A stretch of 52,671 nt of DNA from assembly GCA_052033715.1 (NCBI GenBank), contig JBPOJJ010000004.1:1-52671 (forward strand), in the 5' to 3' direction. Positions 24,009-28,181 of the stretch are shown piece by piece. Position 1 is the first letter of the stretch. Each line of letters starts with the position of its first letter. The notes below the pieces were generated by a model. It saw only the letters and a program-made list of their open reading frames with translations, had not been told where the DNA came from and searched no databases. A program made the translations under genes and the position numbers. The DNA is from Patescibacteria group bacterium. GTDB taxonomy: Bacteria; Patescibacteriota; Minisyncoccia; Phycocordibacterales; CSBR16-119.

Positions 24009-24797
24009 ATGAAAAAACTACCTTGGGTCATGGTTATCGTGCTTTTGGGGGTAATCGGGTTTATGGCTTTTGGGTCTAAAAAGGATACGGTCGTAGAAGA
24101 CGATAGAGGTACTCCGGTGGCGCCCATTTTAGATGAAGTACCTCAAAGTTCCGGCCATATATTTGATGGGGAAGAAGAAAAAGCTATAACTGAGTCTAAC
24201 CAGTATCTGAAAGTTGACGCCAAGTATCCGGCGTTTGAAAATAAGGATATTAGTGAAATTGTCGAGGATTTCGTCCAGACACAACTTGCACAGTTCAAGT
24301 CTGAAACTAATATAGATGACATGTCACAGTCCGAAAAAGACTTCCTGTTCCAGAATGGTTCCAAATATGAATTCAGTACGACGTACAAAATTTATGAGAC
24401 TGAAAATCTCTCGACGGTTTTGTTTTCTATCTCGACATATACCGGTGGGGCACACAACAGTTTGGTTCTCCGAAGCCTTAATTTCAATGACCAGGGTAAG
24501 ACAATAACCATTGGGGATTTGTTCCAGCCAGAATCCAATTATCTATCGGAGCTCTCGACTCTTTCGAGAACCAAACTCAAAGCAAGCCTCAAAGATAATT
24601 CCGCTGAATGGTTTACCGACGGCACAACACCAATCACGTCAAACTTCGAAACGTTCTATCTGACCGACGAAAACATACTTCATATAGTATTCCAACCATA
24701 CCAAGTCGCGGCGTGGGTCGCTGGCGCGCCAGAAATAACTATTGATATCAAAACTGAATTGAAGGATGTTATAAGTTCAGATTTTGTAAATGAATAG
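24009..24797 (+). CDS. Membrane-anchored DUF3298/DUF4163 (RsiV/PdaC-like) protein
   Basis: N-terminal TM; YTGGAHN and F-PYQVAAW-AG motifs. Confidence 0.78.
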   Translation: MKKLPWVMVIVLLGVIGFMAFGSKKDTVVEDDRGTPVAPILDEVPQSSGHIFDGEEEKAITESNQYLKVDAKYPAFENKDISEIVEDFVQTQLAQFKSETNIDDMSQSEKDFLFQNGSKYEFSTTYKIYETENLSTVLFSISTYTGGAHNSLVLRSLNFNDQGKTITIGDLFQPESNYLSELSTLSRTKLKASLKDNSAEWFTDGTTPITSNFETFYLTDENILHIVFQPYQVAAWVAGAPEITIDIKTELKDVISSDFVNE

Positions 24798-25113
24798 GTT
24801 TAAAAATATCGACAAAAAATCTCTTGCCCTCATTGCCATAATTATTTTGACCTCTACGGCGTCTTTTGGGCTAGGTAGACTATCAATAATTGAGCAAGTT
24901 CGCGCCAAAGATGACGTAGAGATCATAATACCGAGACTTTCTAATCTAAAAGTCGATGAATCGAAGTTCAAATATTTGGCATCTAAAAGCGGGACGAAAT
25001 ATTATCCAATGGGCTGTAAATCGGCAAATCGCATAAAACCTGAAAATCGAGTTTATTTTAATACAGTAGATGAAGCAGAGGAGAGCGGTCTAACTTTGGC
25101 GTCCGGGTGCTAG
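24790..25113 (+). CDS. Membrane protein with a C-terminal Ada-metal-binding-like motif
   Basis: ASKSGTKYY..GC...RI..EN..YF....EAE motif. Confidence 0.7.
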   Translation: MNRFKNIDKKSLALIAIIILTSTASFGLGRLSIIEQVRAKDDVEIIIPRLSNLKVDESKFKYLASKSGTKYYPMGCKSANRIKPENRVYFNTVDEAEESGLTLASGC

Positions 25114-25178
25114 AAACAGGGGATAAAAGTAGAAAAATACTAAAATTATTATTTGTTGAAGTTTGACCAAATTTGCCG

Positions 25179-25257
25179 AGGGAAGTGCAATCTCTCTTAT
25201 AGAACCACGTCGCACAATATATCTTTTACGACGCTTGGCTCTAAGGAGGACTTCCCT
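25179..25257. other. 79-nt intergenic rod hairpin
   Basis: AGGGAAGT/ACTTCCCT outer stem, bulged middle stem and CGTCG/CGACG inner stem. Confidence 0.45.
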
Positions 25258-25405
25258 ATAAACAACTAAGAATTTAAGGGGTTGATCCGAAATTTTATCT
25301 ACATCCCTACTCTGGGCTCCTGGGTTAATATAAGTCGAGTCTGACTTCATCTCGAAATCTATATCCTCCCCCTATTCCTATTCTCCACATCTCTACTTTC
25401 AGTTA

Positions 25406-25433
25406 TTGACTTATCTTACGCAAACCGTAAAGT
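25406..25433 (+). promoter_or_regulatory. Promoter TTGACT-16-TAAAGT
   Basis: 20 nt upstream of ATG 25454. Confidence 0.55.
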
Positions 25434-25453
25434 TGGTCTCAAAAGGTACACTC

Positions 25454-26095
25454 ATGGTAAAACAATCAGCTCAGAAAGACTGGCTGATCTTGCCAGTCCA
25501 CAACCATCCGACACTCAACCGTTGGACGAGAAAGAAGCTTCTTCGACGCAAGCTGATGACCGTTGGAGATGTAGTGAAGATCTGCCTGACCAAGGATGGG
25601 TACTTCATACCGATCCGATCTCGCGGTTTCGGCACTGCAATCAATTACGATATCGCCAAGCTTCTGTACCGCACTGGTTTTCTTACCAAGGACAAGCTTG
25701 CGAAAGTAAGCACTCCGGACTGGGTTCTTCGCAAGCCAACCGATAAAGAAATCGGTGCGGCGGGTAAGAAACTCATTTCAAAGTTCACGTGGTCTGAAGC
25801 AGCGCACATCGTCATCAAGCACACCTGCAACATCGGCAACAGAGGTTTACCATGCACTCCCCGACTCAGAACGTGGAAAGGAATCACTGTGGGTGATGTG
25901 GTGAAGCGATTCATCAGGATGAACAATGAAGGGAAACCGTACTTTTGGAGAACAGGACATCTCGGTTCCCATTGGTACTCCCGAGACGAAGCACTTATTG
26001 ACGCCCTCCAAGAATGTTTGCCGGAGATCGAAAGATTTCTATACGACAACCATTTTCTGGAGACTACCACAAAGCCCGAAAAGGAAGAGCCTTAG
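25454..26095 (+). CDS. Orphan protein with two repeats resembling the RNA polymerase alpha C-terminal domain
   Basis: Duplicated TVGDVVK motif; alignment by eye to alpha-CTD. Confidence 0.6.
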   Translation: MVKQSAQKDWLILPVHNHPTLNRWTRKKLLRRKLMTVGDVVKICLTKDGYFIPIRSRGFGTAINYDIAKLLYRTGFLTKDKLAKVSTPDWVLRKPTDKEIGAAGKKLISKFTWSEAAHIVIKHTCNIGNRGLPCTPRLRTWKGITVGDVVKRFIRMNNEGKPYFWRTGHLGSHWYSRDEALIDALQECLPEIERFLYDNHFLETTTKPEKEEP

Positions 26096-26109
26096 CGGGC
26101 TTTTCCTTT
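26080..26109 (+). terminator. Intrinsic terminator
   Basis: AAAGGAAGAGCC-ttagcg-GGCTTTTCCTTT. Confidence 0.65.
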
Positions 26110-26112
26110 ATA

Positions 26113-26141
26113 TTGACACCCCACATTCTATAACGTATAAA
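26113..26141 (+). promoter_or_regulatory. Promoter TTGACA-17-TATAAA
   Basis: Near consensus; directly after the preceding terminator. Confidence 0.75.
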
Positions 26142-26199
26142 TAAACCGAATTCGGTCATTAGCGACCAGTCCCTTCCCACAAAACAAAACCCCCTTCAC

Positions 26200-26607
26200 A
26201 TGAAAAAGTTCCTCATCGCATTCTTGATCTTGGCTGGAGCCGTGGTCATGATACTTACTTTCTTCAACGCCGCCAATGCGTTTGCATTAGAGGGAGCAGG
26301 CGATGACGTGCAACGCATTCCGAAAGTCTACGCACTCATGGCGACTACGCTCGCTTGCCTTGGATGGATAACAGCTAAAGGGACATGGTCTCGCTTGGCA
26401 GTATTACTCGCCATCGCCATAGTGGCCATGGCGCCCATCAAAATGTCCTGGAGATTCTATCCAAAAAACGATGGTGGCATCTCCCTACTAGATTGGATGA
26501 CCATCGCCAACTCTTTGGCTGGAGCACTCCTCGGCATCGCTACCTACTACGTGATAAAGTACTTATTCGCGAAGGACGCGAAGAACTGTTCAGCCGTGAT
26601 GGACTAA
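26200..26607 (+). CDS. Orphan membrane protein (signal peptide plus about 3 TMs)
   Basis: 135 aa, hydrophobic; has its own promoter and terminator. Confidence 0.75.
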   Translation: MKKFLIAFLILAGAVVMILTFFNAANAFALEGAGDDVQRIPKVYALMATTLACLGWITAKGTWSRLAVLLAIAIVAMAPIKMSWRFYPKNDGGISLLDWMTIANSLAGALLGIATYYVIKYLFAKDAKNCSAVMD

Positions 26608-26629
26608 GAACATACCACGACAACGTGGA

Positions 26630-26662
26630 AGCCCCGGCGCGATGCCGGGGCTCCTTCTTTTT
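26630..26662 (+). terminator. Intrinsic terminator
   Basis: AGCCCCGGC-gcgat-GCCGGGGCT followed by ccttcttttt. Confidence 0.75.
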
Positions 26663-27133
26663 AAAAAGGAAATTCTGCGACGATTTTGTATTCTTGAACA
26701 GGCGGTTCAAAGTCTGGAGAACCTTCGTCAAATTCTTGTTTCATTACGAGATATGAATTCTCTCCTTTTGTAATTTTAAAAACAAAACCGAATCCCGCGC
26801 CGTAGCATTGAACATTTTTCGTACCGGCCAAGCTATCCGTTTCAACATCCGGCAACTCATTACAACTTCCGTGTGACACCTGGATTAATTTGCTCGTCAC
26901 TTCCCCGCTAGAATATTTTGCATCGAGCAAAACATTCGTATTTGGATTACCGTCACCGTTTAATGTCTCGGCCTTTTTAAATCTCCATGTAAAAAAGTTG
27001 GCACTCCCATCGAAACAATCGGCGCCGGAGCCTCGGCCTGCTTTTCGTTATAAATGTAATTATTCAACGCGTAAAAACCGACAATAAGCACACCGATAAC
27101 AACAATCACGATAAGAAGGTTTTTTATATTCAT
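26661..27133 (-). pseudogene. Membrane-anchored protein gene split by a -1 frameshift at a T6 run (about 157 aa if joined)
   Basis: The N-terminal TM ORF from ATG 27133 stops at 26960. The -1 frame continues FTWRFKKAETLNGDGNPNTNVLLDAKY into track ORF 26661..26930. Confidence 0.65.
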
Positions 27134-27137
27134 AAAT

Positions 27138-27563
27138 TTATTTAACCACAAATCGATTTTGGACGGCCAAGATTGCCAAAACAAGAATGTAAACGATGTG
27201 ATCATCGATGATTGGATTATTCTCTGGCGGAAACAATGCCAAATACATAAGGAGCATCAAAATAATTCCGGCGATACTTGCCCATGTACGATACTGGCGG
27301 AAAAGCAGTCCTAGCCCGATTCCCAAAAGACCAATCATAAAAAGCCAGTCTACGATGGGCTTCCCCGCCAAGCTTTGAAAAAATGAAGCAAAAGGACCAT
27401 GCGTCCCATGGAGCAGAAACCCGCTCGTCGGCGACCCGCCACGAATCCAGGCGCTGGTGGACGTTGTTGCAAATCCCAGACCGAATGTTTTATCAGCAAA
27501 AGCCCAGAGGAAGATGAAGGCCATGATGACTCGAAGACTGGTTAAAAGTTTCTGAAAATTCAT
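27138..27563 (-). CDS. DoxX/DoxD-family membrane protein
   Basis: LRVIMAFIFLWAFADK, WIRGGSPT-GFL and NNPIIDDH motifs. Confidence 0.82.
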   Translation of the reverse strand: MNFQKLLTSLRVIMAFIFLWAFADKTFGLGFATTSTSAWIRGGSPTSGFLLHGTHGPFASFFQSLAGKPIVDWLFMIGLLGIGLGLLFRQYRTWASIAGIILMLLMYLALFPPENNPIIDDHIVYILVLAILAVQNRFVVK

Positions 27564-27572
27564 ATCTGAATT

Positions 27573-27902
27573 TTAATTCTTCGCGTTGTAGTTATCAATC
27601 AGGCCTGGTACCGTCGGCCAATCCTCGAGATTGGGATTCGTAAAGTCTGTCGGCGTCTGACCATCACGCAGACGTTCCATGTTTCGAGCAAAAGTTTCCC
27701 AGAGGATACCAACGATGAGTTCTTCCCAAAGCCACCTAGCGGGCTGTGCCAGATAAGTGTTCCAAAAACCAACGGCCCCGGTCGAGACGTAAGAAACATT
27801 TTCTTGCACACCGTCGTTTTCAACGACGTCATGCTGAACGGATACGCCCATGAGTCCGAGCGCCACAAGTATAAGCACGATAACAAACAGAGTTTTAATC
27901 AT
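27573..27902 (-). CDS. Hypothetical secreted or membrane protein
   Basis: N-terminal hydrophobic segment; tight operon packing. Confidence 0.7.
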   Translation of the reverse strand: MIKTLFVIVLILVALGLMGVSVQHDVVENDGVQENVSYVSTGAVGFWNTYLAQPARWLWEELIVGILWETFARNMERLRDGQTPTDFTNPNLEDWPTVPGLIDNYNAKN

Positions 27903-27920: not shown

Positions 27921-28181
27921 TCATTTAATCGCACCTTCAGTTCTCAACAGTTTCTCTTTGGCCGCTTCTCCGCCCCGATTATAGTTACCAATTCGTCCGT
28001 CAGAGCGAATCACCCGATGACACGGCACATCTGATCGAAAATTCTGCGCCATGACCGTACCAACCACACGCGAAGCGCCCGGGTTGCCGGCTTTGGTTGC
28101 AACTTGTTTGTATGTCATCGTCTTCCCTCTCGGGATTTTGCGCACAACGTCTAGAACTTTTTCGATAAAAGTCTTCTTCAT
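27921..28181 (-). CDS. MGMT/Ogt-family alkylguanine DNA-binding/methyltransferase domain protein
   Basis: IPRGKTMTY, SRVVGT and VPCHRVIRSDG motifs. Confidence 0.9.
   Translation of the reverse strand: MKKTFIEKVLDVVRKIPRGKTMTYKQVATKAGNPGASRVVGTVMAQNFRSDVPCHRVIRSDGRIGNYNRGGEAAKEKLLRTEGAIK

Follow-up and report, generated by a model that had tools for sequence, protein, structure and literature searches.

A rare, free-standing basic protein from an ultra-small Patescibacteria genome with repeated modules of the RNA polymerase alpha-CTD fold type

The 52,671-nucleotide stretch of a Patescibacteria group bacterium contig that we analysed (hereafter the window) encodes P0001, a cytoplasmic and strongly basic protein of 213 aa (pI 9.8) made up of diverged copies of a module that derives from the (HhH)2 fold of the RNA polymerase (RNAP) alpha subunit C-terminal domain (alpha-CTD). 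The fold itself is already known, and what is new is a very rare family of proteins in which helix-hairpin-helix (HhH) modules of the alpha-CTD type have been duplicated and remodelled. Judging from sequence conservation and predicted structure, we see about an even chance that P0001 is a free nucleic-acid-binding accessory factor, most likely acting on DNA, that is built from repeated alpha-CTD-derived (HhH)2 modules, and the protein appears to be neither a detached RNA polymerase subunit nor a faithful alpha-CTD mimic. The source genome (606 kb in 12 contigs, 96.8% complete) is of the ultra-small candidate-phyla-radiation/Patescibacteria type.

Comparison of P0001 with its orthologue at locus L001 in a related genome (79% amino-acid identity, no gaps) gave a dN/dS of 0.14, which rules out that the frame is not a gene and indicates a real gene under purifying selection. 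In the open reading frame listing the frame opens at a TTG codon at 25406 and runs to 26095 (229 aa); this TTG was not borne out as a start codon, since all homologues start at the ATG at 25454 (M-x-K-x-S-A-Q-K-D-W...) and the TTG at 25406 opens a conserved −35 hexamer. A search of the whole genome likewise placed residues 1–213 at 25454–26092, with the stop codon following (Table 1). The promoter reached 9 of 12 matches in a consensus scan, and its TTGACT-16-TAAAGT arrangement is identical in L001. There the TTGACTTATCTTA...AAACCGTAAAGTT block is kept in the alignment, while the surrounding and further-upstream intergenic DNA is unrelated, and the promoter can therefore be read as a phylogenetic footprint. 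Downstream, the terminator-like hairpin (MFE −18.3 kcal/mol, z = −4.1, reached by 0 of 200 shuffles) is also kept in L001, where it is followed by a long T-tract. The preliminary description had credited the gene with its own promoter and its own terminator; both were found and both are conserved in L001, and on these grounds we regard the gene as monocistronic. An Rfam scan of 24700–26700 returned nothing credible.

Table 1 Features of the P0001 gene and protein in window coordinates, and examples of canonical stand-alone alpha-CTD ORFs in related genomes.
Feature	Position	Strand	Remarks
Promoter	25406..25433	+	−35 TTGACT 25406-25411, 16-nt spacer, −10 TAAAGT 25428-25433
Probable Shine-Dalgarno sequence AAAAGG	25441..25446	+	7 nt before ATG; read from sequence
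CDS of P0001	25454..26095	+	213 aa plus stop; start common to homologues; dN/dS 0.14
D1, residues 8-87	25475..25714	+	alpha-CTD-like (HhH)2 domain; pI 10.5
TVGDVVK, first copy, residues 36-42	25559-25579	+	within D1
Middle segment, residues 88-137	25715..25864	+	motif P-T-[DE]-x-E-[IL]-G-x-x-G and helix WSEAAHIVIKH
D2, residues 138-202	25865..26059	+	diverged partial D1 copy: hairpin, helix B, beta-hairpin, C-terminal helix
TVGDVVK, second copy, residues 145-151	25886-25906	+	within D2
Terminator-like hairpin	26080..26109	+	13 bp, 4-nt loop; overlaps stop codon
Stand-alone alpha-CTD ORF	G008:C4:56563-56736		related genome
Stand-alone alpha-CTD ORF	G007:C3:41519-41692		related genome
Stand-alone alpha-CTD ORF	G001:C7:18422-18562		related genome
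Stand-alone alpha-CTD ORF	G011:C17:3859-3984		related genome

The first repeat (D1) is, by its model and its profiles, a well-preserved copy of an alpha-CTD-type (HhH)2 domain. Modelling of residues 6–92 with AF2, using a 32-row alignment of D1 pieces and of D0 pieces (the extra N-terminal region of longer relatives, see below), gave a pLDDT of 92.2 and a pTM of 0.84, with hairpins at T36-V-G-D39 and G58-F-G60 between helices. When this model was superposed on solved structures with Foldseek, its best matches in the PDB were the RNAP alpha-CTDs of Caulobacter, E. coli, Synechococcus, B. subtilis, and Thermus (probability 0.84–0.89, TMq 0.58–0.61, TMt 0.64–0.80, rmsd ~3 Å over 66–70 columns), at E-values of ~1, which are usual for a helical domain of 70 residues. 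Alpha-CTD chains made up ~22 of the best 50 PDB matches, NusA was not among these 50, and the other credible fold matches were also HhH proteins, namely BAF, Y-family polymerases (Dpo4/Dbh), and AF1548. In the viral fold library BFVD, the best matches of D1 were phage proteins annotated with an RNA polymerase alpha C-terminal domain.

The profile comparisons pointed to the same family. Aligned with hhalign to the RpoA CTDs of the window genome and 11 related genomes, the D1 profile scored 28.3 (78%, about 30 columns), a score reached by none of 200 column-shuffled controls (mean 9.4, sd 2.1, maximum 17.5), and among the 23 PDB sequences that a D1/D0 profile retrieved at E < 10, 17 were RpoA CTDs, all in one register. 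Both searches reproduced the register against alpha-CTD that had previously been drawn by eye. P0001 and its D1 piece had no match to the Pfam alpha-CTD profile PF03118 at E ≤ 1 (gathering threshold 23.8 bits), and scanning the whole genome with this profile gave no signal at the P0001 locus, so a Pfam check on each repeat, as had been proposed, left D1 below threshold and D2 without a match. A transitive link to Pfam exists through a second subfamily (B), which aligns with that of P0001 (subfamily A) over its full length (hhalign 99.1%, E 7e-19, 179 columns): the D1 of its member P0024 passes PF03118 with 27.6 bits against the cut-off of 23.8 (E 2.3e-6), and P0021 reaches E 0.014. With the match to alpha-CTD found in the D1 model as well as in the profiles, the claim that the first repeat is alpha-CTD-like stands.

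The likeness to alpha-CTD (PF03118; PDB 3K4G, 1Z3E, 1DOQ, 9ZUM) lies in the predicted (HhH)2 topology, in a first helix-hairpin-helix that is in register (L262...I-G279-D-L-V), and in a second glycine hairpin followed by a long C-terminal helix. It does not extend to the DNA-contact residues. The alpha-CTD contacts UP-element DNA through R265, N268, C269, G296, K298, and S299 (E. coli numbering), and in our alignments their D1 equivalents are W24, K27, K28, G60, A62, and I63, so that G296 alone of the six contacts is kept and R265, N268, C269, K298, and S299 are replaced. The UP-element-binding residues, which the preliminary description had singled out for inspection, thus weigh against the decoy or adaptor role suggested there; the contact arginine is confined to P0004 and subfamily B (V-R). 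Helix 3 of alpha-CTD carries the '287 determinant' for activator contact, and DSSP assigned bridge or strand residues and a loop to residues about 45–60 of the D1 model, where alpha-CTD has this helix. The region has the consensus K-D-G-x-F-x-P, and the model suggests that helix 3 has been replaced by a beta-hairpin. More generally, HhH modules bind the DNA backbone or minor groove in a non-sequence-specific manner, and D1, as modelled, has the two helix-hairpin-helix motifs with G-h-G type glycine hairpins that characterise the superfamily, its second hairpin (G-F-G-T-A) fitting the general G-h-G signature. Two further differences concern architecture: the alpha-CTD is part of RpoA, attached by a flexible linker to the alpha-NTD, whereas P0001 is stand-alone and monocistronic, and in the P0001 family the module is repeated two to three times.

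Free copies of alpha-CTD are not restricted to P0001-like proteins. Besides RpoA, about half of 20 related genomes carry canonical stand-alone alpha-CTD ORFs in open frames of 140–289 aa (examples in Table 1), although the window genome (G000) has none. Proteins of this stand-alone type occur in Patescibacteria and phages. As with P0001, they are free forms of the module whose genes are small accessory ones in genomes of a similar type; unlike P0001, they hold a single canonical copy scoring 25–72 bits on PF03118. Seven such ORFs of related genomes all match an RpoA-CTD HMM (E 7e-31 to 2e-4), and none of the seven matches the full-length, D1 or D2 HMMs of the P0001 family, so by sequence the canonical stand-alone ORFs appear to be a separate family. 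The RpoA of the window genome is a 339-aa open frame elsewhere in the genome with a normal CTD (65.8 bits); this intact RpoA rules out P0001 as a replacement, supplied in trans, for a lost alpha-CTD.

These observations bear directly on the role first suggested for P0001, that of a decoy or adaptor whose free modules would rival the alpha-CTD of the polymerase itself in binding UP elements, activators or NusA, or would link RNAP to other factors. Among solved folds alpha-CTD comes closest to D1, and the frequency of stand-alone alpha-CTD ORFs in related genomes and phages demonstrates that free copies recur. A faithful alpha-CTD decoy is nevertheless not supported, since P0001 fails the PF03118 threshold, has lost every UP-contact residue but G296, and coexists with an RpoA whose CTD is intact; the predicted loss of helix 3 with its 287 determinant and the failure of the family HMMs to find the canonical stand-alone ORFs count further against it. 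P0001 also has no signal peptide, which argues against this role and against that of a host effector. Taken with its supporting points, we rate the decoy or adaptor as unlikely.

The second repeat (D2) is a diverged, partial copy of D1, as indicated by one profile comparison and by the order of secondary-structure elements. Hhalign of D1 against D2 gave 76% with a score of 27.8 over 47–49 columns (D1 positions 23–71), compared with a mean of 9.0 in column shuffles, 1 in 200 of which reached the observed score, and the aligned part takes in the hairpin, helix B, the beta-hairpin, and the C-terminal helix ending in [FL]-L. A combined D1 and D0 profile (A4) gave 77.6% against D2, while HMMER detected the repeat at only about 10 bits. 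In the full-length model, which is of moderate quality (pLDDT 72, pTM 0.68) and gave only noise in Foldseek against the PDB, the D2 elements H146–153, E154–156, E162–164, and H179–198 follow the same order as in D1, and the first helix of D2 appears degenerate. The second TVGDVVK copy that had been noted by eye is indeed present (Table 1). BLASTP between the two halves of the protein aligned this stretch only (E 0.014), and the nucleotide sequences of the two copies differ, which means that they do not stem from a recent duplication. Against alpha-CTD directly, D2 reached 6% with hhalign, and it had no match in PDB sequences or Pfam. The label of tandem alpha-CTD-like repeats therefore holds in that there are two copies and the first is alpha-CTD-like, but not in the sense of a direct alpha-CTD match for the second, for which the term applies only by descent. 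Module duplication is a feature of the family, since the extra N-terminal region (D0) of the relatives of 262–291 aa is clearly another copy of D1 (hhalign 98%), which gives relatives of 270–290 aa a third copy of the module. The middle segment between D1 and D2, whose motif corresponds to invariant columns of alignment A1, has no detectable relative (hhalign below 1% against D1 and against alpha-CTD), and its residues 101–120 have the highest pLDDT of the full-length model (89–93).

The P0001 family is very rare and unnamed. P0001 had no match in Pfam, NCBIfam, PADLOC or PDB sequences, and a single weak one in PHROGs (phrog_3949, 'transcriptional repressor', E 0.0046, residues 60–100). Five close relatives, each unnamed or labelled 'hypothetical', came out of a word-indexed search, and word-indexed expansion of the family gained only one cluster, while an exhaustive search with a profile, run over 1.84 billion representatives, retrieved 20 proteins at E ≤ 1e-3. 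These form four groups: a 213-aa type; a 262–291-aa type (P0007–P0019) with about 90 extra N-terminal residues; a 193–225-aa type, which is subfamily B (P0021, P0022, P0024); and two giants, P0013 (2685 aa) and P0023 (1794 aa). The giants are false positives. The profile search assigned 10 and 5 N-domain 'repeats' to them, respectively, which are identical coiled-coil units of 6–9 bits each whose scores were summed, and a wider D1 HMM matches neither protein. That near-identical coiled-coil repeats of 204 residues reached E 1e-20 by summing weak matches calls for caution with repeat-rich hits in general.

Of 41 close relatives 1 has a family member, as does 1 of the 401 genomes searched from the phylum. 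Among 201 genomes from the order there was likewise 1, a second match there being a 17.8-bit fragment interrupted by two stop codons. Pattern scans of GTDB representative genome contigs with alignment A1 and with P0025 detected no relatives, and no family member was found in phage records (tblastn) or in viral contigs (pattern scan). No neighbour gene is conserved across the neighbourhoods of other members that we compared. Nothing relevant to stand-alone or alpha-CTD-like proteins turned up in literature searches.

The interval that carries the P0001 gene is a hypervariable accessory hot spot. It spans window positions 25113–27570, between a conserved gene for a 107-aa protein and the gene at 27573–27902, and conserved core genes lie on both flanks (ATP synthase epsilon, S41 peptidase, L9, L27, a PdaC/DUF3298 protein, and the 107-aa protein on one; an MGMT-like 85-aa protein, M23 peptidase, and GltX on the other). 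In L001 the orthologue has the same relative place, with 4 kb of other cargo upstream of it, and the gene that follows it differs. The P0001 gene is absent from all four genomes of the same genus (G002–G005), whose interval holds unrelated cargo (nuclease-like, GNAT-like, and membrane proteins, and unknowns), and it is because L001 and each of these four carry different cargo that we call the locus hypervariable. Two of the four are nearer to the window genome than L001 is, as judged from the 107-aa protein (88% vs 69% identity). The divergence between P0001 and its L001 orthologue resembles that of the flanking core genes (49–85% in tblastx), and the gene is a vertically maintained yet patchily distributed accessory gene. 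No tRNA was found near the locus, and no integrase was seen among the genes scanned there.

Several other features of this region were recorded. Across L001 and the four same-genus genomes, the hot-spot cargo includes secreted nuclease-like, GNAT-like, and membrane proteins as well as DUF4145 and TspO. Just past the stop codon of the 107-aa gene, ~150 bp at 25113–25270 are kept in the two closest genomes, G004 and G005 (65–66% in tblastx), and overlap an unconserved 86-aa minus-strand ORF (25090–25350); this stretch may hold a small gene or a small RNA, or else be a 3′ UTR or terminator element. The flanking 85-aa MGMT-like protein (27921–28181, minus strand) consists of the MGMT/Ogt DNA_binding_1 domain only (101.7 bits) with the PCHRV active-site motif, and is a minimal methyltransferase that has no N-terminal domain.

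L71 and G168 are the only residues that never vary in the family as a whole, and F51, A68, V85, F153, R155, and L196 are nearly invariant. As this conservation is of the structural-core kind and no invariant residue is of catalytic type, P0001 would be a binding module and not an enzyme. What it binds is less constrained. One alternative holds that the HhH-derived modules have lost nucleic-acid binding and become protein–protein interaction domains of a scaffold, in the manner of NusA AR1 and AR2, which are likewise two consecutive HhH-derived modules in one chain. Consistent with this, the DNA-contact residues of alpha-CTD are not kept, conservation is highest in the linker motif PTDxEIG and in the D2 core F-x-R...G-H, and the pTM of the full-length model suggests a compact two-domain body. 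The high positive charge of P0001 is, however, at odds with a scaffold, and no conserved gene neighbour offers itself as a candidate partner. We hold this alternative to be improbable, to much the same degree as the decoy. The NusA repeats themselves are acidic protein-interaction domains that end a large protein, whereas P0001 is basic and free-standing.

Less probable still, at well under the likelihood of a scaffold, is an RNA-binding or ribosome-associated small basic protein. The basic composition would suit such a role, and the best PDB-sequence matches of the D2 profile were to mitochondrial bL35 (KRF-x-R...G-K...G-H), but their E-values of 0.3–0.7 are not significant and the likeness is probably due to chance; Pfam Ribosomal_L35p matches 0 of 22 D2 sequences, and a patchy accessory distribution is unlike that of a ribosomal component. 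Weakest is the idea that the alpha-CTD resemblance is convergent or fortuitous and the family an unrelated small helical fold, which is slightly less probable again: the values obtained for P0001 directly are all modest (Foldseek E ~1; hhalign 78% over about 30 columns; HMMER E 0.15–1.3), but four independent lines, namely the PDB fold, the viral fold, the shuffle-controlled profile–profile comparison, and the transitive Pfam match through a 99%-related subfamily, converge on the same family and register.

We therefore favour a free nucleic-acid-binding role for P0001, which is suggested by the core-type conservation, the basic charge, the HhH hairpins, and the lack of a signal peptide, membrane segment or conserved partner gene. 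Under this nucleic-acid-binding reading, P0001 would act alone on nucleic acid, most likely DNA; the two glycine hairpins of D1 and its Arg/Lys-rich first helix may grip the backbone or minor groove, and D2, along with the conserved structured linker, could supply a second contact or a surface for a partner. A bolder version, which we think unlikely, is that the family represents unrecognised, Patescibacteria-restricted free transcription/nucleoid factors in which the alpha-CTD module has been doubled or tripled and remodelled (helix 3 to beta-hairpin, and a new N-Y signature). A single chain would in that case present several minor-groove readers to AT-rich, UP-like DNA, occupying or bridging it and competing or cooperating with the alpha-CTDs of the polymerase.

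Since the family is very rare, its present value is mainly that of an annotation and of a structural lead. It adds a small, readily expressible candidate DNA-binding protein to a setting of ultra-small bacteria and phages in which free RNA polymerase modules recur, and does so from a lineage in which the regulation of transcription is hardly explored. It also shows that tandem copies of the alpha-CTD module can drift out of Pfam's detection range and yet keep the fold.
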